From an uncultured Verrucomicrobiae bacterium (GTDB lineage: Bacteria > Verrucomicrobiota > Verrucomicrobiia > Chthoniobacterales > JAFAMB01): DNA of 64,000 bases. Positions within the stretch are counted from its first letter, which is position 1. Every line of letters starts with the position of its first letter. Location: positions 640,001-704,000 of the forward strand of contig CAVXLD010000001.1 of NCBI GenBank assembly GCA_963762565.1. Reading direction: 5' to 3'. A program made the translations under genes and the position numbers. Below the pieces are notes generated by a model, which saw nothing but the letters and a program-made list of their open reading frames with translations, did not search any database and was not told the origin of the DNA. Shown piece by piece: positions 2,374 through 47,972 of the stretch.

Positions 2374-3888
2374 TTAACCGAGGTGAATCCAGACAGACTT
2401 TGTATGCGTGACGGTCAGCAAAGTTTCAAGACATTTATCTCGTCCGGTGCCGGACTGTTTGAACCCGCCCCAAGGCTGAGTCATATCGCCGTGGTCAAAG
2501 CAGTTAACCCAAATCACGCCGGCATCGATGTCCCTGGCCATTTTGTGAGCTGCGGTCACATCAGAGGTCCAGATCCCGGCAGCAAGGCCGTATATCGAAT
2601 CGTTGGCGATATTTACGGCCTCATCGAGGGTCGAGAAACCGAGTACGGCGCCAACTGGTCCAAAGATCTCTTCCTTGGCGATCTGCATCTGATTGTTCAC
2701 TTCGCTAAACAAGGTCGGCGCCACATAGGAGCCGCGGTTGTAGCCTGCAGGGATATTTCCCCCAAGCACGAGTTCAGCACCCTCTGTTTTGCCGATATCA
2801 ATAAACGAAAGAACCTTTTGTTGTTGGCTCCGGCTTACCAGAGGGCCCATGGTGGTAGCGGGATCAAGCGGATCACCTAATCGTACCGTTGCTCCTACTT
2901 TTTCCTTAAATCGTTCGATGAATTCGTGGCGAATAGTCCCGTCGACTAAAATCCGGGATCCGGCGCTGCACATCTCGCCTTTGTTCCCGTAGATTCCGTT
3001 GACCGCGTAGGCGACGGCGACGTCTAGATCTGGAACCTGGGCGGTGATGATCTGCGGTGATTTACCGCCGGTTTCCACCGTAACGCGTTTCAGGTTCGAT
3101 TCACCTGCGTAAACCATCATTAATTTGCCGACCGTGGTGGAGCCAGTGAAGCTGATTTTGTCGACATCCATGTGTAGAGCCAGCGCTTTCCCGACAATGC
3201 TACCGGCACCGTGCACTACGTTGAATACGCCCGGCGGGCCGCCGGCCTCCACGAACAGTTGAGCCAAGAGGGTAGAGGATAACGGTGATAGTTCGGCCGG
3301 CTTCAGCACGACGGAGTTACCTGCCGCTAACGCCGGGGCCACCTTCCAGGCGTTCATCAGTAACGGATAGTTCCAAGGTGTGATACACGCCACTACCCCC
3401 AGCGGCTGGCGCAGAATGTAATGGAAGGCATCGGACGCCGTGTTGGTAACGACTCCCTCGATTTTGTCGATGGTTTCTCCGAAGTATTGAAAGGTCAGCG
3501 CTGCGGCTGGGACATCGCCCGTGAGCATTTCTACCACCGGTTTGCCAACATCCAGCGAATCGAGCAGAGCAAACTCGAGCGCATGCTCATCGATCAAGTT
3601 CGCCAAACGATAAAGAACCTCCATGCGGGCGCGTGGTTCCATGCGCGCCCAAACACCGGACTTAAACGCTTTGCGAGCCGAGGCTACCGCAAGATCGACA
3701 TCTTCGCCGGTCCCTGCCGGCACCGTCGCTAAGACTTGATCATTTGCCGGATTGACGGTCTCGAATCGAGCTCCAGAATTTGTGTCCACCAACTCTCCGT
3801 TGATGAACATGCGCGTTTCCGGTTTTAGGGCCGCAGCGTACCGCCGAAATTCATCGTAACTCAGCGCTCTGGCTTCTTTAGCGTTCAT
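2374..3888 (-). CDS. Aldehyde dehydrogenase (PuuC / betaine-aldehyde DH-like)
   Basis: PWNYP, FTGST, ETGGKS (catalytic Glu), GEMCSAG (catalytic Cys), EEIFGP; AGGA 8 nt before ATG 3888. Confidence 0.95.
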   Translation of the reverse strand: MNAKEARALSYDEFRRYAAALKPETRMFINGELVDTNSGARFETVNPANDQVLATVPAGTGEDVDLAVASARKAFKSGVWARMEPRARMEVLYRLANLIDEHALEFALLDSLDVGKPVVEMLTGDVPAAALTFQYFGETIDKIEGVVTNTASDAFHYILRQPLGVVACITPWNYPLLMNAWKVAPALAAGNSVVLKPAELSPLSSTLLAQLFVEAGGPPGVFNVVHGAGSIVGKALALHMDVDKISFTGSTTVGKLMMVYAGESNLKRVTVETGGKSPQIITAQVPDLDVAVAYAVNGIYGNKGEMCSAGSRILVDGTIRHEFIERFKEKVGATVRLGDPLDPATTMGPLVSRSQQQKVLSFIDIGKTEGAELVLGGNIPAGYNRGSYVAPTLFSEVNNQMQIAKEEIFGPVGAVLGFSTLDEAVNIANDSIYGLAAGIWTSDVTAAHKMARDIDAGVIWVNCFDHGDMTQPWGGFKQSGTGRDKCLETLLTVTHTKSVWIHLG

Positions 3889-3904
3889 CGCCAAAATCCT
3901 ATTT

Positions 3905-4434
3905 AGATCCGCAGATTACTCAGATTACGCAGATTTCTTTGGGGTTGAGCTAAGGTGTTGCGTCATGGGACCAGACAAAGCGCTGGTGCTGCAAACTTGT
4001 AGCTCCGAAGTTGAAGACCAGGCCCCTTTGGTGCCGGCCAGCTTTCAAGTAATTTAGAACTTGAGCTGTCTCTACGTCGCCGAGTTTGCCCAAGGCTTTG
4101 AGCTCGACGATGATTGAGTCGTAACAAAGCACGTCAGCTCGATAGGATGAGCGGAGTTCTCGGCCTTTGTAAAAAACCGGCATCGCGGCTTGGGGATAGA
4201 AAGGAATTCTTCGATCGGTGAGCTCGAGTTCGAGCGCCTCCTGGTACACCGGTTCCAGAAAGCCGCATCCGAGTTCCTTATGAACCTCCAGCGCCGCTCC
4301 AATGATTTGATAGGTTTGATCATCCATGCGAAATAATAACATATTAACATAATGTTCTCTACGTCGAATCTCAACCCCGGCGGTACCATTACTCCCAAAA
4401 CAAAATCTGCGTAATCTGTGTAATCTGCGGATCT
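3905..4434. mobile_element. Putative GxxExxY element bounded by 32-bp inverted repeats made of GCAGATTAC nonamers
   Basis: 3905-3936 AGATCCGCAGATTACTCAGATTACGCAGATTT vs reverse complement of 4403-4434 AGATCCGCAGATTACACAGATTACGCAGATTT (31/32). Confidence 0.65.
3950..4327 (-). CDS. GxxExxY protein (PD-(D/E)XK nuclease-like)
   Basis: IIGAALEVHKELGCGFLEPVY, RADVL, IIVELK, AQVLNYL, GLVFNFG. Confidence 0.93.
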   Translation of the reverse strand: MDDQTYQIIGAALEVHKELGCGFLEPVYQEALELELTDRRIPFYPQAAMPVFYKGRELRSSYRADVLCYDSIIVELKALGKLGDVETAQVLNYLKAGRHQRGLVFNFGATSLQHQRFVWSHDATP

Positions 4435-4453
4435 TTTCGTTTTTGCCGGTTTC

Positions 4454-6754
4454 TCAAAGATCGAGCACAACCTCCCGTTCCCCGCCGGAAGCGGTCTGGG
4501 CCAGATCAGAGCGAGGAATCGAGCAACAGAGCAAAACTTCGCCTGGGCCGCGCACCGCCACCGGTTCTTCCAAGTAATCGACTGCGCCGTTGCTAATGCG
4601 CGTGGTACAGGTCCCGCAGATACCGGAGCGGCACCCGAACTTCGGAGCTAAACCGATCGATTCGGCAAGCTCGAGCAAAGTGCCTTTGTCGCGTGACCAT
4701 TCGGCGGTGGTTCCCGATTTGGCAAACCGAACCCGGACCGGAGGAACGTCAGCGTGACCAGGCTCGATCACTGTTTGCGGCCTTCTTTCCGGTTTCAGAA
4801 CCGTTGCCGGACCGAAGGACTCGTAATGGATTCGTTCCTCCCGGACGCCGATTCCGGTGAGGCCATCATAAAGCGATTTCATGAAGGGCGGCGGACCACA
4901 GAGATAAAAGTCGTAGTCGCCAAACGGGAGCATCTGTTTGAGTGTTTCGATGCTGATCCATCCAACGGAATCGCACTGATTATCCGGTCCTGCGTCAGGC
5001 TCCGGATGACTGTAGGCGATATGCACTTTCAGTCCCGGATGCTGGCCGGTGAGATCCCGGATATGCTTGGAGAACGCGTGCACCCTGTGGTTATGAGTAC
5101 CATGGATGAAGTAAGCAGGTCGAAACTTCCCCGTGCGGCGCCCCTCGTCGACCAGGTATTCAGCCATCGCGATCATTGGGGTAATGCCGACGCCGCCAGA
5201 AATCAGTACCGGTATTCGACCGTTAGAATTGAGAATAAATTTACCCCGGGGTGCAGCCGCCTCCAGTCGAAAGCCGGGCTTTGCATTGGCATGCAAAAAC
5301 GGTGAGACCAGTGCGTTTCCTCCTTCGCGGCGGATACTCAAGCGATAGTGATCGGCATTTGGAGCAGCCGAAAGTGTGTAAGTGCGTAACGCAGGCTCTT
5401 TTTGCCCGGGGATCGTTATCCGAATCGGTAAAAACTGGCCCGGTTCCCAAGGTTGAAGCGCCTGGCTGTCCGGACGCCGAAAATAGAAGGAAGTGATAAT
5501 ATCGCTTTCGGGCTCCACCTTAAACAATTCTAACTCGACATAAGCGCTCCGCTCAGTCTCTGAAGCCGCTGAAGAGGTCGGAGCGACCGAGATCGTTTCC
5601 GAAACTCCCCGCACGTCTTCCGCCATCGATTTGAGCGCTGTCGCGTCGCCGGCGACCGCGCTAGCAACCAGCTTTTGAAAATGACCAACCAGATGCTCAG
5701 CCCGGGTCAGAAACCTGCCCCGTTCCGGTATGGCCGCTCGCAATCCGCGCTGGACCGAGTCGGTAAGGACATCATCTTCGAGGCCGACCTGAACGTTGAA
5801 TCCAATCAGTTCTTGCGCGAATTCCTGCGAGACACCAGGGCCGAAATACTGTTCAGAGAAGCCCTTCGTGCCATTGGGGCCATTTGGTATCCAGACATCG
5901 ATCGAAAGATTCGGGAACCCAGGATTGATATTGACCGTCATGTTTGGCCAGAGCAGGTGATATTGGGCTTGGGCGACTTCACCTCTGGCGTCGTAAATCT
6001 TGACCTGGCTTTTACCTTCCAACGCGGACTGCCGTACCTGACCGACCTGACTCATGAACCAGCCGTGCACACCGAGATTGTAGTTCTCCGGTAAAACATC
6101 GATCGCGGCGCTGAAGCCCGGATGGGCTACGGCGCAGTGATAACATTCGAGATAATTCTCGAGCATGGTCTTCCAATTAGAGTAGGACTCCCATTCTCCG
6201 CGCTCGTACAAAACCAGAGAATCAAGATCGATCCCGCTCCCAGCAACAATCTCAAGCAATTTGCCGAATTGGGTCTTTACGGGTGAGGCACTCGGATCTG
6301 CGTTGACAAAAACCCACGGGCCCAGCGTATCGACTTTGAGCGGCAGAAGCGGATAATCCTCAAGTCGAAAGTTAGGTTCTGTCGCCGTTCGCGGCGCACC
6401 CTTCAGGCGGCCCGTTAGATCGTAGGTCCAGGCGTGATAACCGCATTGCATCATTTGGGCATTTCCACAGCCCTTCATCACTTCGTGCCGGCGATGCCGG
6501 CAAACATTGTTCAACGCGGTCAGACCGCCTTCGTTACGGATTACCACGGCGGGGATACCGCCCACATAACCGGTGATATAATCGCCGATATTGGTTAGCT
6601 GTTTGAGCGGGCCGATGTAATTCCAGCTTTTCCTGAAGATCTGACTAATCTCTCGGTCAGTGATCGAGGGATCGGTATACCAATACGCGGGTAGGCTTTC
6701 ACCACGGTCGAGGCCGGCTACCAAGCCGGCTAGGTTTTCACTAGATTGGTTCAT
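4454..6754 (-). CDS. Rieske non-heme iron oxygenase fused to FAD/NAD reductase and [2Fe-2S] ferredoxin
   Basis: CRH...CGYH Rieske cluster; ENYLECYHCAVAH iron site; RTYTL, GGVGITP, CGP, ESFG reductase motifs; CRSGICGTC...LLCC ferredoxin. Confidence 0.93.
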   Translation of the reverse strand: MNQSSENLAGLVAGLDRGESLPAYWYTDPSITDREISQIFRKSWNYIGPLKQLTNIGDYITGYVGGIPAVVIRNEGGLTALNNVCRHRRHEVMKGCGNAQMMQCGYHAWTYDLTGRLKGAPRTATEPNFRLEDYPLLPLKVDTLGPWVFVNADPSASPVKTQFGKLLEIVAGSGIDLDSLVLYERGEWESYSNWKTMLENYLECYHCAVAHPGFSAAIDVLPENYNLGVHGWFMSQVGQVRQSALEGKSQVKIYDARGEVAQAQYHLLWPNMTVNINPGFPNLSIDVWIPNGPNGTKGFSEQYFGPGVSQEFAQELIGFNVQVGLEDDVLTDSVQRGLRAAIPERGRFLTRAEHLVGHFQKLVASAVAGDATALKSMAEDVRGVSETISVAPTSSAASETERSAYVELELFKVEPESDIITSFYFRRPDSQALQPWEPGQFLPIRITIPGQKEPALRTYTLSAAPNADHYRLSIRREGGNALVSPFLHANAKPGFRLEAAAPRGKFILNSNGRIPVLISGGVGITPMIAMAEYLVDEGRRTGKFRPAYFIHGTHNHRVHAFSKHIRDLTGQHPGLKVHIAYSHPEPDAGPDNQCDSVGWISIETLKQMLPFGDYDFYLCGPPPFMKSLYDGLTGIGVREERIHYESFGPATVLKPERRPQTVIEPGHADVPPVRVRFAKSGTTAEWSRDKGTLLELAESIGLAPKFGCRSGICGTCTTRISNGAVDYLEEPVAVRGPGEVLLCCSIPRSDLAQTASGGEREVVLDL

Positions 6755-7959
6755 ATTATTTTCGCTGGTTTTTCGCTATTCCCATTAGCTAAAGCTTCCG
6801 ATGCGGGTGCTGGCGTGCCTTTTATCAGGAGTGGAAGGGAGAGAACCAGGACCGCAGAAACGCACAACAAGGTTTGATAAAATTGGAGGTGCCCCGCTGC
6901 AGTTGCTACGGCATTACTGGCCATCATCCCTATGGAGTAGGCGATGTTGTAGACTGCATAGACCGCCGTGTAACAACGGAGCCCGCGCCGGTCAACCGCG
7001 TTGCCGAGTTCTGCGGAAGTCGGGTTAAGCATGAAGGCAAACGACATGCTGACCAGACACAAACCGAATCCAGTAAGGACGATTCCTGGTAGGAGTCCAA
7101 GGAGCGGCAGAGTAATCGCCATAGCGAGGGTACCGCCAGCAATCACGATTTTAGTCGGCGCCAGGGTAGCGACCCGACTCACCACCGGAGTAATCAGCCC
7201 AAAAGCGATCGTTGATATGGTGAAAATCATCCCAATCGTGGAAGGAGTTGCCTCGGATCGGCTGAGATGTTCGGGTAGAAGCGGCTCCACAATTCCCCAG
7301 CCGAACGCGGCCAGGGCGACGGCCAATCCCGGCACCAACACTGATTTATCCACCAACAGCGCAAATAGTTCCGCGTTAGACCCGCGATAAGTTACTTTTC
7401 CCGGTAACAGAAAGATGCGTTGCACCGCATCGATCCCGACTAAGACAATCAGAATAAGAAACGGCAACGCGTAGCCGCCGGCTTGATAGAGGAATCCGCC
7501 GGCCACAGGTCCTAGCACCGAACCGGCCGTGCTACCCGCGAGGGCTAAACCCATCATCTGAACCCGGTTTTTAACGTAACCTTCCGCGATCAGCGCCAGT
7601 CCGGCGGTCCAGGTAGCGGCGGACGCGGCGCCCTGGCAAACACGAGCCAGCAATACCAGGGGAAAATTGCCGCCGAACCAGAATAGAAGCGTGGCCGTTA
7701 GGGATAACAGGACCCCTAAGATTACGATGCGCTTGCCGCCGATCTGGTTACCCAGCAGTCCGAAAACTGGGGTGGCAACAAAGACACCGATAGCGTACCC
7801 GCCATAGAGCAAAGCAAGTCCCTCGTGACCACTAATTTGAGCAGGAGAGTAAGCCGTCAGCGGTACAACCAACCCATAGATGAAATAATCCAGGAACAGC
7901 GCATACGTAATAACGTAAAACACTTTCCAGGAACCTAGCCGCCTGAACGAACCCAACAT
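6751..7959 (-). CDS. MFS transporter (resembles vesicular amine transporter / DHA1 type)
   Basis: About 12 hydrophobic segments, LARVCQGAASA, YAVYNIAYSIG; overlaps the Rieske gene start by 4 nt. Confidence 0.88.
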   Translation of the reverse strand: MLGSFRRLGSWKVFYVITYALFLDYFIYGLVVPLTAYSPAQISGHEGLALLYGGYAIGVFVATPVFGLLGNQIGGKRIVILGVLLSLTATLLFWFGGNFPLVLLARVCQGAASAATWTAGLALIAEGYVKNRVQMMGLALAGSTAGSVLGPVAGGFLYQAGGYALPFLILIVLVGIDAVQRIFLLPGKVTYRGSNAELFALLVDKSVLVPGLAVALAAFGWGIVEPLLPEHLSRSEATPSTIGMIFTISTIAFGLITPVVSRVATLAPTKIVIAGGTLAMAITLPLLGLLPGIVLTGFGLCLVSMSFAFMLNPTSAELGNAVDRRGLRCYTAVYAVYNIAYSIGMMASNAVATAAGHLQFYQTLLCVSAVLVLSLPLLIKGTPAPASEALANGNSEKPAKII

Positions 7960-8448: not shown

Positions 8449-8680
8449 GGCGCGCGGCACACCAATGCCGTACGCTGGGACCGAAACCGGATTCGAGGAC
8501 AGCTTGTCCGCCGAAGCCCAGGCTCTATTTCGTCACCCGCCCAAAGTCGGCCTCGCAAGCGAGGCGCGCTCCACAAGAAGTAATCGGCAAAGACGGAAGG
8601 ACGAGAACGAAGCGCCTTCTAAGTTTTGCGCCCTTTTTGCGGCGATCCCCAATCTTCGTATAGTCCTCCCGACTTCAGAA

Positions 8681-10003
8681 ATGCCAGCAGATGTTTTTAT
8701 CAGCCATTCAACCAAAGACAAAACGGTCGCCGAAGCTGTTTGTCACGAATTAGAAGCCAACGGCATCCGATGCTGGATCGCTCCTCGCGATATCGAATTC
8801 GGGTCGGACTGGACGGAAGGAATTACACACGGGATCGCCTCATGCAAGGTGTTCGTGCTGGTGTTCTCGGATTCCGCAAATACGTCGGATCATGTCCGGC
8901 GTGAAGTAGCCAAAGCGTTCTCACTCGGGTTGGCGGTGATTCCGTTTCGGACTGAGGACGTAGCGCCGAATCGGAGTCTCAGTTATTTCCTGGAGACGGT
9001 TCATTGGTTGGATGCATTCCCCTACCCGGCAGAAACCTATTTTGGTACGTTAGCCGATCAGATAAAGCGCTTGCTGGAACGACCTGCAGCCACCGGCGAG
9101 GACGGTGGACCAGCGGCGCAAACGATCGTCGCAGTCGCTGCTCCCGCGCAAGTTGGAGGCTCGCACCTGTCCTCCTCACCTACAGCGAAGGAAGAAGCGA
9201 GACGGGCTCCAGGCGTGCCGACCCCTTCGGCCGCACAAGCGGGGCGCGCTCCACGGAAGGGCGCGGGATTGAGGCGAACGTTTCTCAGATTTAATTTGGT
9301 GTTCTTACCCATCTTGGCGGCGGTTGTCGGCGGCGCAGCAGCGATTATCCACAGCCAACTGGAAAGCTACGCTCAACAGCAGATTGTGGCCGTAGCCCAG
9401 GTCATGTTAGAGACAGCCAAAGCATCACGGAAATATACAACCAAGCAGATTGCGCCCTTATTAGAAAGTCTGCAGTCATCAGATCAACAGTTTCATCCGC
9501 AATCGATCCCGTTTTATGCGGCTACAGAAGCATTCAATTATTTCCGACAGGCGCACCCCGATTTCGCTTACAAGGAAGCCGCGCTGAATCCCACTAACCC
9601 TCGGGATCGAACGGTGGATTGGGAAGCGGATATTGTGAACGCGTTTCAGAAGGACACCTCAAAAACAGAGCTGACCGGCCAGCGAGACACCCCTCTCGGG
9701 CCCTCTCTCTTTATCAGTACTCCGATCAAAGTCGATGACGCCAGTTGTCTAGAATGTCACAGCACGCCGGATAAAGCGCCTCCCGGCATGGTCAAACTTT
9801 ATGGGAGTGCAAATGGGTTCGGGTGGCAAGCGGGTGATATTATTGGGGCGCAGATCGTCAGTGTGCCTGCCGCGCTAACGGAAAAAATCGCGAGCAACGC
9901 GTTCCAATCGATCTTTTGGTGGCTGATCGGCAGCGCGATTGTCCTGTTTGCTGTAGCGAACGGAGCTCTGTTTTGGGTAGTACGCCAAGGAAGAGGCACA
10001 TGA
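8681..10003 (+). CDS. TIR domain - TM - periplasmic c-type heme domain (DUF3365/Tll0287-like) - TM protein
   Basis: DVFISHS...CWIAPRDI...SDHVRREV (TIR); TM FNLVFLPILAAVV; YKEAALNPTNPRDR, CLECH, NGFGW, GDIIGAQIVSVP; C-terminal TM. ORF-track extension to 8465 lies in repeats. Confidence 0.88.
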   Translation: MPADVFISHSTKDKTVAEAVCHELEANGIRCWIAPRDIEFGSDWTEGITHGIASCKVFVLVFSDSANTSDHVRREVAKAFSLGLAVIPFRTEDVAPNRSLSYFLETVHWLDAFPYPAETYFGTLADQIKRLLERPAATGEDGGPAAQTIVAVAAPAQVGGSHLSSSPTAKEEARRAPGVPTPSAAQAGRAPRKGAGLRRTFLRFNLVFLPILAAVVGGAAAIIHSQLESYAQQQIVAVAQVMLETAKASRKYTTKQIAPLLESLQSSDQQFHPQSIPFYAATEAFNYFRQAHPDFAYKEAALNPTNPRDRTVDWEADIVNAFQKDTSKTELTGQRDTPLGPSLFISTPIKVDDASCLECHSTPDKAPPGMVKLYGSANGFGWQAGDIIGAQIVSVPAALTEKIASNAFQSIFWWLIGSAIVLFAVANGALFWVVRQGRGT

Positions 10004-12852: not shown

Positions 12853-13560
12853 TTTTCACAACAAAGGCCGCAAAGGCCACAAAGAGGGATTTTTCTGTCT
12901 CCTATCTTTGTGGCCTTTGCGGCCTTTGTTGTGAAATTTTGGGCTTCGACTTTGCGTTCTTGCGTGATATCCCTGCGTTTCGCTGTGACTCTGGTACTTT
13001 GCGGCTTTGTTGTGGCTTTGTCTTTTGGCCGGACTAGGACTACAGAGCTTCCTTAAGGACTACGCGTCGGATTCCGTTCTTCAGAACGACCTCGTGAAAG
13101 TTGAACAAAAGGCCTAACGGCCTTTTGAGGAGCTTCATATAGCTCATGAGCTGGGCTTCGTGGATTGGGAGAATTTCTTGTACGGCCTTAAACTCAAGAA
13201 TCAGGACGTCATCAATCAGAAAGTCGAGTCGCAAAGGTTCCTCGAAAACGAAACCTTTGTACTCCAGTTCAACCCTCAGCTCTCTTACATATGGAATCTG
13301 ACGAAGCTCGCACTCCCGGCCAAAACACTTTTGTAAATCTCTTCGATTAAGCCGGGACCCTCGATCCGATGAACCTCTATAGCCGCCCCGATTACACCGC
13401 TGCTCCACACGTTAGCTTTCCGTAACGAATCCCACATTTCGTTAACCTAGTGAATCCGACACTCAACAACATAGTATTTATATGTTTTATTCTATCAAGA
13501 AAACGGAATCAACCACGGTCGTTCTGAACCTTTGTGGCCTCTGCGGCCTTTGCTGTGAAA
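12853..13560. mobile_element. Second putative GxxExxY element with CAAAGGCCR-nonamer ends
   Basis: TTTCACAACAAAGGCCGCAAAGGCCACAAAG (12853-12885) inverted to 12905-12936 and to 13530-13560. Confidence 0.55.
13040..13437 (-). pseudogene. Frameshifted GxxExxY protein
   Basis: ATG 13437: MWDSLRKANVWSSGVIGAAIEVHRIEGPGLIEEIY, then frame change to KCFGRECELRQIP...LRLDFLIDDVLILEFK...HEAQLMSYMKLL; span 398 nt, one base short. Confidence 0.85.
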
Positions 13561-27228: not shown

Positions 27229-28277
27229 AGGATTGGGATGTTACGGTGATAGGTGGTGGACCAGCCGGCTCTACCGTCGCCGCCTTAACCGCCAAAGCCG
27301 GCCTCAAAACTTTGTTGATCGATCGGGCTGTGTTTCCAAGGGAAAAGGTCTGCGGAGACTGTCTTAATCCGGGTTGCTGGGAGGTATTTGATCGGCTTGG
27401 CGTCGCCACAGAGATCGCAGGACTGCCTTCCGCACGCCTGGAATGGGTAGCCTTCACCAATCTTCGCGGCCGCCGGGTCGAACATCGGTTCCCGAACGCC
27501 GGTCCGCCAGAGACGGGTATCCGGCGAAGCGTGCTTGATCATGCGCTTCTTAAGAACGCCGAGAAAGCAGGTGCAGAAATTTGGCAGGGCGAACCCGTCA
27601 CCGGCGTCGAACGACGATGGCTAGTCAAGACCGGTCGCCGGCAGATCAGGACAAAATTTTTGGTGGCCGCTGACGGGAGAAATTCGTCCGTAGCCCGATT
27701 TCTGGGCGTTTTTCCTAAGACTCGAACCGACCGGGTTGCGCACCAGACTTATTTTTCGGCTGATCGGCCCATGCATATCGCTTTGGAGCTCAATTCTCTC
27801 GGCTATATGGGTATAGGCACGGTCGGACGAGGCGCTGTTAATCTGTGCATTGTGGCGAGGCCGAAGCGGATCGAGGAACTCCGCTTACGGATATCGCGGC
27901 GCTTCGGGTTAGCGCCCGACCACCGTTGGAACACAGTCGCACCCCTTTCCCGCCGGCCGGTCGAGACCGATGACCCCACTCTCTTTTACGTCGGGGATGC
28001 TGCTCGTGTGGTCGAACCGTTCACGGGCGAAGGGATTTTTTATGCACTGAAGTCGGGATTGCTGGCGGCCGAATCGATCGTCGAATCTAATAGGAAGGGT
28101 CCCCAATTCCAGCATTGTTACGCCGAGCGCCATAGGCAGCTGTACACGGGACGGTTATGGATTAACCAATTGGCGCGTCTATCGGTCTTGCATCCGGGTA
28201 TCAGTAGCACCTGTCTGGAATTATTGCGGTTTTGGCCTTGGCCGCTGGATCACCTCACGCGACGAGTGGTGGGGTGA
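27225..28277 (+). CDS. FAD-dependent oxidoreductase, geranylgeranyl-reductase-like
   Basis: GGGPAG, FPREKVCG, AADG, GDAA...PFTGEGI. Confidence 0.88.
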   Translation: MKDWDVTVIGGGPAGSTVAALTAKAGLKTLLIDRAVFPREKVCGDCLNPGCWEVFDRLGVATEIAGLPSARLEWVAFTNLRGRRVEHRFPNAGPPETGIRRSVLDHALLKNAEKAGAEIWQGEPVTGVERRWLVKTGRRQIRTKFLVAADGRNSSVARFLGVFPKTRTDRVAHQTYFSADRPMHIALELNSLGYMGIGTVGRGAVNLCIVARPKRIEELRLRISRRFGLAPDHRWNTVAPLSRRPVETDDPTLFYVGDAARVVEPFTGEGIFYALKSGLLAAESIVESNRKGPQFQHCYAERHRQLYTGRLWINQLARLSVLHPGISSTCLELLRFWPWPLDHLTRRVVG

Positions 28278-28702
28278 TTGGTGATTGGTGATTGGTGATT
28301 GGTGGTGGTTGTTGAAAGGTGATTGGCGCGGCGACTTCTCTAGTTTGGTGGGGCGAGGCTCCGGAAAGACCTGCGGCGATTCGCGAAGGTATCGGTCTTT
28401 CGGCGTTCTATAGTGTGCGATCCCTTGGCGCGCGCCGAGCCGGACCCAAGGCGTGCCATTCAAATGCGCGGTTCGGTATGTCCAACCGACCCGAGCTTCT
28501 CGAGGACGAGGACGAGAACAAAATGTCTTGGGACATGGTTCGCGCTGGGCCCGGCTCGGCGCGCGATATGGTGCAGCAGACGAAGGAACAGCGGAAACTT
28601 ACGATGCTTCGCGAAATCGACCCGCTCTTTCGGGAGCCTCGCCCCACCAAAAGAAAAAGGGCTGTCGCCCTACCAATCACGAATCACCAATCACCAATCA
28701 CC
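28273..28702. repeat. Composite element: (GTGATTG)n / (CCAATCA)n arrays enclosing a GTGGGGCGAGGCTCC...GGAGCCTCGCCCCAC REP-like pair with internal GACGAG hexamers
   Basis: 28344-28362 inverted to 28633-28651; GTGATTG arrays also near 19120, 19740, 23168 and 40742. Confidence 0.8.
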
Positions 28703-28708
28703 TTTCTC

Positions 28709-47686: not shown

Positions 47687-47972
47687 ACCGCAGATGAATT
47701 ATCCGCAGATTACGCAGATTACGTTCTAGAGCGTCGATCCCCGTCCGGACAATAAACGCTCCTCGTCAGTCTACGTGAATTTCCTAGCCCACAGGTTGCC
47801 CGGCCTAAAACCGAAATCTGCGTAATCTGCGGATAATCCATCTTGGCTATCGGCGGTTACGACGAAAGCGCTGCTGACCTGAACGTGCCCTTAACGACCG
47901 ACTATCTGCGTATCTGTGTCCATCTGCGGTTTGAATTTCTGTCTTCGTGTTCATTCGTGTCCATTCGCGGTT
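47686..47972. repeat. Nested gene-less nonamer ends, including the GCAGATTAC type
   Basis: TTATCCGCAGATTACGCAGATT (from 47699) inverted to 47815-47837; outer AACCGCAGATG...CATCTGCGGTT; extra CATTCGCGGTT end. Confidence 0.85.

Follow-up and report, generated by a model that had tools for sequence, protein, structure and literature searches.

The closest account in print of the kind of element described here is the intervening-sequence literature. In Coxiella, the intervening sequence (IVS) of the 23S rRNA gene is described, in the section of PMC4990558 that deals with it, as having a 28-bp terminal stem, heptameric repeats and an open reading frame (ORF) for a four-helix-bundle protein; it is cut by RNase III in vitro, and the same section gives an old proposal that such sequences are mobile through their ORF. 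A second resemblance is to the REPIN/RAYT system, in which, on the description given in PMC3116915, a single-copy gene is bracketed by a repeat in inverted orientation, many further copies of which are dispersed through the genome as gene-less hairpin-forming doublets; repeat families are specific to individual genes, and no target is duplicated. All of these features are shared by the element described here.

The window, a 64,000 nt stretch of a contig from an uncultured Verrucomicrobiae bacterium (CAVXLD010000001.1, positions 640,001 to 704,000), contains this element between a Rieske oxygenase fusion gene and an aldehyde dehydrogenase (ALDH) gene. In window coordinates, the features of the locus are:

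2374-3888, minus strand: aldehyde dehydrogenase gene, downstream of the insert (PF00171, 1.6e-163; ATG at 3886-3888)
about 3894-4446 (~553 nt), no strand: whole inserted element, by comparison with the empty site of congener G003
3894-3904, no strand: outer extension on the ALDH side, by the empty-site comparison, including an AGGA at 3897-3900 (minus strand)
3905-3936, minus strand: arm downstream of the nuclease gene (3' on the gene strand), an inverted repeat pairing with the arm at 4403-4434
3950-4327, minus strand: GxxExxY / PD-(D/E)XK nuclease gene, 125 aa plus stop (PF13366, TIGR04256)
4346-4374, minus strand: promoter-like TTGAGA-17-TATGTT, from a consensus scan (9/12; pattern match only)
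4403-4434, minus strand: arm upstream of the nuclease gene (5' on the gene strand), an inverted repeat with about three RCAGATTAC words after a terminal GATCC
4435-4446, no strand: outer extension, a degenerate outermost unit missing from the empty site
4454-6754, minus strand: upstream neighbour of the insert, a Rieske oxygenase with fused reductase and ferredoxin domains (PF00848, PF00355, PF00175, PF00111)

The arms are 32 nt inverted repeats, matched at 31 positions (97% complementary) and lying 466 nt apart, in which a word recurs every 9 nt, giving about three words per arm. This confirms the arrangement described in an earlier note on this DNA, made from the letters alone, of a single GxxExxY gene packaged in inverted nonamer ends. 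The nonamer GCAGATTAC is present in five copies in the window, against 0.32 expected, a number reached in none of 100 shuffles. When positions 3896-4447 (552 nt) are folded at minimum energy, whether as RNA or as DNA, the two arms are base-paired with each other, forming a 32-bp stem with a predicted duplex energy of -50.6 kcal/mol as RNA and -36.8 kcal/mol as DNA; hence the terminal repeats close a long stem, as do those of the IVS. An Rfam scan of positions 3700-4650 identified no family, the lone sub-threshold hit (E 0.28) being a chance match.

The likeness to the IVSs of Coxiella and Leptospira, as these are characterised in the relevant section of PMC4990558, extends to the size of the unit (400-700 nt), the terminal inverted repeats of around 28-32 bp enclosing one small ORF, the short tandem repeats in the arm region and the sporadic distribution. 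However, the cassette lies between protein-coding genes rather than within a 23S helix, its cargo is a PD-(D/E)XK protein (PF13366) rather than an S23p / four-helix-bundle protein (PF05635), and its words have a period of 9 nt rather than the 7 nt of the IVS. Cutting by RNase III, demonstrated for the IVS in the same section of PMC4990558, is a prediction in the case of the cassette.

The sole sizeable gene between the arms is that of the GxxExxY protein, an alternative ATG at 4342 extending it to 130 aa (3950-4342, minus strand); the promoter-like site lies between the upstream arm and its start codon, and an overlapping 132 aa frame (4072-4470, minus strand) was treated as spurious. Both profiles assign the protein to the family, PF13366 (PDDEXK_3) at 4.9e-38 (130.5 bits, cut-off 22) and TIGR04256 (GxxExxY) at 4.3e-40 (136.7 bits, cut-off 35), and the sequence carries the GxxExxY motif and a D...E-x-K core. 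Across 54 sequences G20, G22, E25, Y28, K77 and Q89 are invariant, with D65 and E75 nearly so. The structure predicted for the protein (pLDDT 93.3) is that of a minimal PD-(D/E)XK core, the nearest solved folds, with TM scores of only 0.5-0.6, being Cas4 SSO0001, the uncharacterised restriction-endonuclease-like 3ijm and lambda exonuclease; a sequence search of solved structures returned no relative at E values up to 0.01. Neither the ORF list nor Pfam, which gives PF13366 alone, contains a DDE, HUH or recombinase gene within the unit, in agreement with the earlier note. The entry for PF13366 in a 2012 survey of the superfamily reads 'Unknown' (PMC3424549).

Literature searches, which did not extend to supplements, found no description of GxxExxY genes as armed insertion cassettes, and nothing relevant on PDDEXK proteins with inverted repeats and mobility or under the family accessions. 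Hence the family of hairpin-armed GxxExxY cassettes is apparently undescribed, as the earlier note had supposed; the same architecture is, however, already in print with a four-helix-bundle ORF and heptamers, as the 23S IVS.

Both neighbouring genes are intact and on the same strand, the Rieske-fusion ORF ending at 4454 and the ALDH gene starting with the ATG at 3886-3888, so that, as the earlier note stated, neither is disrupted; the GxxExxY gene is co-oriented with the operon. In congener G003, of the same genus, contig C429 is 93% identical to the window as far as position 3893 and 91% identical from 4447 onwards, a single nucleotide lying in between. Amongst 79 loci gathered as ALDH relatives with flanks, the Rieske fusion is directly upstream in six, which include the G003 locus and come from records titled as several phyla; two of these loci (L050 and L153) probably represent one contig, leaving five or six independent operons. 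The spacer between Rieske stop and ALDH start is 12-43 nt in all six, compared with 565 nt in the window. These are the operons lacking the unit that the earlier note had proposed looking for, and they bear out its reading of a discrete insertion. As the spacers are short in every other operon, the cassette must have been gained in the lineage of the window rather than lost elsewhere, and as the G003 empty site has no hairpin, the arms and gene arrived together. On these alignments, the whole unit, arms included, is shown to have entered a 13 nt spacer after the split from the nearest sampled congener, and to have done so without target duplication.

The inserted DNA is wider than the 32 nt arms by 11-12 nt on each side, and the 530 bp originally assigned to the unit should accordingly be extended to approximately 3894-4446. 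The AGGA ahead of the ALDH start is part of the gained DNA and may act as the ribosome-binding site of that gene. The TTT beside each arm, which had been suggested as a weak target duplication, falls inside the insert and therefore is not one. None consistent was found in 46 related cassettes either, the count at 3 nt being 0/46 when the conserved A is treated as part of the element. The end of the upstream arm has the same consensus as those 46 relatives, and outside the ATCC there are further, weaker inverted matches in gene-less hairpins of the same arm family.

Contigs of three DNA runs and one RNA run were compared with the site. Those of the best-matching run include the cassette and continue through the right arm into the Rieske gene. 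In two other soil runs both flanks are present, to ~3896 and from ~4451, but not the interior; as no joining contig was reported, these were not counted as an empty allele. Joints between arms in run contigs have sides of no more than 30 nt and probably derive from other copies; an RNA run gave coverage of the repeat arms only.

The operon itself (2374-7959) encodes an MFS transporter, the Rieske-reductase-ferredoxin fusion and ALDH. Its closest relatives come from records titled Alphaproteobacteria and Acidobacteriota, with up to 77% protein identity for ALDH, which suggests that the operon may itself have been transferred. Nearby, at 8465-10003, is a 512 aa frame, the N-terminal part of which may represent a TIR-type domain, judging by its sequence pattern.

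The genome, 6.1 Mb in size, contains 14 profile matches in about 12 GxxExxY loci, 11 of them more than a fragment. Flanking inverted repeats with a score of at least 19, and 26-107 nt in length, are present at all 11, compared with 12 of 1000 random intervals of gene size (Fisher 5e-20). The sequence of these arms differs between copies, nearly all consisting of 9 or 10 nt words; CAAAGGTCA-type arms are those of another GxxExxY subfamily in this genome. The closest paralogue is 68-69% identical, hence no recent copy-and-paste event is evident. The window holds a second such cassette:

12854-13560, minus strand: second GxxExxY cassette, with arms of CAAAGGCC words (29/31) and its gene in two frames

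This gene is probably decaying. The second cassette was rejected as an empty-site case, G003 having related, partly shared sequence at that position.

A homologue search with the single protein confirmed 554 loci, of which the best 80 (52-68% identity) were used; these come from records titled Verrucomicrobiota, Acidobacteriota, Planctomycetota, Chloroflexota, Bacteroidota, Proteobacteria and others. Inverted repeats scoring at least 15, with conserved ATCCRCAGATKAC ends, were found at 59 of the 77 amongst these 80 with enough flank, the remaining 18 having no repeat by the ungapped method. The ends of 46 loci, drawn from a wide range of phyla, fit a sharp consensus, (t)ATCCRCAGATKACRCAGAT, beyond which nothing is conserved, except at one orthologous site that many genomes of another family share, with the same length of 465 nt. 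Just three of 48 frames checked contain an internal stop, indicating that most copies are kept intact. In a sample of the phylum, comprising one locus per genome from 60 other genomes, 18 of 29 GxxExxY loci had repeats scoring at least 15, against 0/28 shifted controls. The test proposed in the earlier note, for inverted periodic ends beside GxxExxY genes, thus gives a general result (11/11, 59/77, and 18/29 against 0/28). Neither of the two outcomes that it had named as counting against its reading, synteny of the gene without repeats in relatives or ends no commoner beside GxxExxY genes than elsewhere, was encountered. The unit is a genuine, recent insertion and belongs to a widespread family of nuclease cassettes with hairpin arms.

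These comparisons also bear on the idea that nothing here is mobile, the gene being an old resident with regulatory palindromes that was deleted in the congener and other lineages. In keeping with this, gene-carrying cassettes are single-copy and diverged, and the 465 nt site is conserved with similar flanks over many genomes of its family. Yet clean loss would be needed in all six other operons, in several phyla, each time leaving 12-43 nt; furthermore, the same cassette type is found between unrelated genes in different phyla, and orthologous sites have nested, variable hairpins. This explanation is disfavoured, and we regard it as very improbable.

Homing endonuclease genes may be free-standing or intron-borne, PD-(D/E)XK types included, and target one cognate empty allele. 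We know of no homing element with terminal inverted repeats or gene-less hairpin derivatives. The cassette resembles them in being a small nuclease gene, precisely inserted, with no transposase and a sporadic distribution. It differs in its insertion sites, which, save for the one orthologous site in one family, are unrelated; there is no recurrent insertion at one cognate target.

The sequence of the arms is linked to that of the protein. The more alike two proteins are, the more alike are their arms, as a comparison of 86 cassettes shows (Spearman 0.47, a value reached in none of 2000 label permutations), with arms shared by 83-98% of protein pairs at least 60% identical, and by 1-5% of pairs between 30 and 50%; the bin below 30% was set aside, as it was contaminated by wrong frame picks in long elements. 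Within the genome, arms are common only to the two closest pairs (69% and 85% identical) and to one of 29 pairs below 50% identity. The co-variation of protein and ends proposed in the earlier note is thus present, although the test cannot tell co-evolution apart from vertical inheritance of both together. A good number of the 77 loci represent orthologous sites within a single family, and joint descent adds to the signal, so this constitutes support rather than proof; a family link between arms and protein is nevertheless well supported by the sequence comparisons.

The genome's four-helix-bundle genes, of which there are eight loci (PF05635 / TIGR02436, '23S rRNA intervening sequence protein'), provide a further likeness to the IVS, being bracketed in the same manner as the GxxExxY genes; for the majority of the eight the bracket is of the same type, but with 7 nt words. 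In the phylum sample, repeats were present at 13 of 27 four-helix-bundle loci, against 1/25 shifted controls. The word periods at these loci were 7 (nine loci), 8 (two) and 6 (one), whereas those at GxxExxY loci were 8 (five), 9 (two), 10 (six), 11 (one) and 12 (one). Periods of 7 or less therefore characterise 10 of 12 four-helix-bundle loci and none of 15 GxxExxY loci (Fisher 8e-6, the relatives being partly non-independent).

In the genome, periodic hairpins that lack a gene are far commoner than those that carry one. Around 1,570 short-period arrays were detected, compared with one in the shuffled genome. Inverted pairs of arrays within 3 kb number 317, 233 of them no more than 300 nt apart; direct pairs show nothing comparable, the corresponding count being 10/89. 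Sites resembling the arms of the window's cassette number 157, and 61 hairpins of this arm type have loops no longer than 300 nt. Using a motif of at least two CAGAT words, 179 arms were found and 44 hairpins paired, of which 21 form a subfamily with loops of 93-102 nt. In this subfamily, identity averages 94% in the arms, whilst the interiors, although retaining their length, reach 38.5%, shuffled sequence giving 31% when aligned in the same way; the arms must therefore be held or rewritten as the interior drifts. A consensus fold of the 21 gave the arm stem only, with no conserved interior structure on that alignment. The interiors of gene-less hairpins are not derived from the cassette, to which the match is limited to the arm regions. 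Weak central GAAAACG and GUUUUAGC motifs, which might pair, are visible in the 21-locus subfamily (for instance at C1:96151-96296).

Miniature inverted-repeat elements are short gene-less copies that outnumber their gene-carrying partners and share terminal inverted repeats with them. The present hairpins are alike in both respects, gene-less forms being more numerous than gene-carrying cassettes and terminal inverted repeats being common to all. However, the cassette has neither a DDE transposase nor a target duplication, at this site or in the 46 relatives, as would be expected of a DDE insertion sequence and its miniature derivatives, and the gene-less interiors are not deletion derivatives but nearly saturated sequence between arms that are 94% identical.

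Turnover of these hairpins is evident from comparisons with congeners. One of them in the window is of the cassette's word family:

47701-47835, no strand: hairpin without a gene, made of words of the cassette's family and lying inside one arm of a larger CAGATGA-type hairpin

At this intergenic site, downstream of an integrase-like gene (47.7 kb), the window and each of three congeners have different hairpins, some of them nested. The full arrangement in the window (47688-47960), right after the integrase-like gene, is a CAGATTAC hairpin in the arm of the CAGATGA hairpin, followed by an orphan CGAATGGACA-type arm. Another cassette site has, in a congener, a gene-less hairpin of a different family. 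At locus L239 (C1:115000-119500), compared with G002 contig C118 and G003 contig C775, the cassette is inverted in G002, and other congener rearrangements also have their breakpoints at cassette arms. Outside the genome, the arm word was found in 10 of 120 other genomes of the phylum, four of the 10 lacking a close protein homologue, and one of these four having nine copies; a close homologue is present in six of the 10 and in 17 of the 110 genomes that do not contain the word (Fisher 0.003), though this is not a test of dependence, because a cassette's own arms produce such an association.

Such observations could also be accommodated if the hairpins were mobile or recombinogenic through host recombination or replication, or through the enzyme of another element, and the GxxExxY gene, for instance a homing-type or defence nuclease, were riding as cargo and took no action on the arms. 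The great excess of gene-less hairpins, the word families with no cognate gene, the rearrangements that break at arms, including the inverted cassette in G002, and the occupation by a cassette of a site that in a congener holds a gene-less hairpin from a different family all fit this account. So does the presence of about ten Y1 transposase homologues in the genome. Passive cargo does not, however, predict that arm sequence and period should follow the protein subfamily and family, and the G003 empty site, which has no hairpin, indicates that arms and gene came together. The Y1 genes can be examined directly, five of them being RAYT-like:

C7:408584-409344: RAYT-like Y1 gene, bracketed by inverted repeats (33-61 nt across the five)
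C3:712344-713118: RAYT-like Y1 gene, likewise bracketed
C3:55304-56077: RAYT-like Y1 gene, likewise bracketed
C1:118882-119560: RAYT-like Y1 gene, likewise bracketed
C9:102119-102777: RAYT-like Y1 gene, likewise bracketed

The brackets are short REP-type palindromes in at least four of the five, and none is periodic. That the Y1 genes have non-periodic repeats of their own argues against Y1 enzymes moving the periodic hairpins, and hence against the cargo explanation, which we consider improbable, if a serious contender. One of these genes lies 1.6 kb from a GxxExxY cassette.

With regard to REPIN/RAYT, the cassette has flanking inverted copies of a dispersed hairpin-forming repeat, and the finding of three gene families, each within inverted repeats of its own style, supports the analogy; the RAYT-like genes are bona fide examples of that system in the same genome. 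The differences are that the cassette has no HUH Y1 domain (PF13366 alone being present, and the Y1_Tnp genes of the genome lying elsewhere), that its arms are tandem words of fixed period rather than short palindromes, and that the cassettes, together with their arms, are shared between phyla.

The arms could act at the level of DNA or of RNA. The genome encodes an RNase III (rnc) homologue, and given the predicted stem and the cutting of the Coxiella IVS by this enzyme, processing of the operon RNA is a reasonable expectation. The unit might then be chiefly an RNA device like the 23S IVS, its stem serving as an RNase III processing or stabilising site that is tolerated or uncouples the genes of the operon, and its protein acting on RNA or being dispensable. 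The architecture is that of the Coxiella IVS, with its 28-bp terminal stem, heptamers and small ORF as described in that section of PMC4990558; the 32-bp stem of -50.6 kcal/mol, the rnc homologue and the co-orientation of the gene with the operon are consistent with the same idea. Nevertheless, the 160 arm mismatches counted over 59 cassettes do not favour G.U on the sense strand over A.C (44 against 40), so that the RNA-stem version of the earlier note gains no special support. Neighbouring genes are on the opposite strand upstream in 17 of 57 loci and downstream in 26 of 54, on crude ORF calls, with no strong rule of orientation. None of 139 loci lies in rRNA, and the genome's own 23S gene, spanning 2851 nt on a model of 2925 positions, has no insert. 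Taken together, these three observations make the constraint on the arms look like one acting at the DNA level. RNA processing would also leave the arrival of the DNA unexplained, and we consider it quite unlikely that the unit is primarily such a device.

On balance, we think it somewhat more likely than not that the unit is a selfish cassette with hairpin arms on which its own nuclease acts, operating in a manner similar to REPIN/RAYT and built like the 23S IVS. Counting against this reading are the lack of multiplied gene-carrying copies in the genome, the abundant word families that have no matching gene, the phylum genomes with the arm word but no close homologue of the protein, and the 18 of 77 homologues with no repeat by the ungapped method. 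It would be one gene-carrying copy in a large family of small selfish cassettes, in which inverted arms with a word every 8-10 nt surround a minimal PD-(D/E)XK GxxExxY nuclease. The enzymology we infer is that the nuclease recognises its own arm words, probably by binding of several subunits at intervals of roughly a single turn of the helix, on DNA in duplex or hairpin form, and that cutting of the arms would lead to copying, retention or homogenisation of arm-bounded units. Amongst the units served in this way would be the hairpins that share the word family but have no gene and that greatly outnumber the cassettes, a parallel to the RAYT transposase serving REPINs, with a different enzyme fold. 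By analogy with the 23S IVS, transcription of the operon would produce a 32-bp RNA stem expected to be cut by RNase III; the RNA of the cassette would be freed and the transcript of the operon divided.

More tentatively, the GxxExxY cassettes, the four-helix-bundle cassettes and the 23S IVSs may form one pan-bacterial superfamily of mobile hairpins that has no transposase or recombinase. A small protein would read the periodic words (9-10 nt for the nuclease, 7 nt for an Avd-like bundle) and drive the spread and homogenisation of both the cassette and hundreds of gene-less hairpins, the rRNA IVSs being copies that landed in rRNA; this is a possibility worth stating, although we think it doubtful. 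Few small multicopy genes of bacterial genomes that lack an explanation are as common as GxxExxY and four-helix-bundle genes, and short tandem word repeats are an unexplained litter of many such genomes. Should each protein family prove to act on periodic arms of its own, both gene families would acquire a role; a large class of intergenic repeats would be explained, the thirty-year-old puzzle of rRNA intervening sequences would have a testable origin, and a minimal PD-(D/E)XK nuclease would represent a new mechanism of mobility or repeat maintenance. In practice, the cassettes insert into operons, mark sites of rearrangement and cause short-read assemblies to break at their arms.

Other word families in the genome have different contents. 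Four of the eight commonest heptamer families (AGCTAGG, AAATGAC, AAACGCC and AAATAGC) are absent as arms of the eight four-helix-bundle loci. An array of the 23 nt word AGGAGCTAGGAGCTAGAATCTAG is present in around 96 identical copies genome-wide; pairs of these arrays enclose 250-450 nt, containing small frames of no known family and no four-helix-bundle or GxxExxY gene. At 28271-28706, GGTGATT heptamer arms surround no recognisable gene, a 117 aa frame there having been rejected as a relative of the four-helix-bundle proteins (hhalign probability 0.2); nested within them is a palindromic repeat, GGTGGGGCGAGGCTCC ... GGAGCCTCGCCCCACC, that is also found in a congener.
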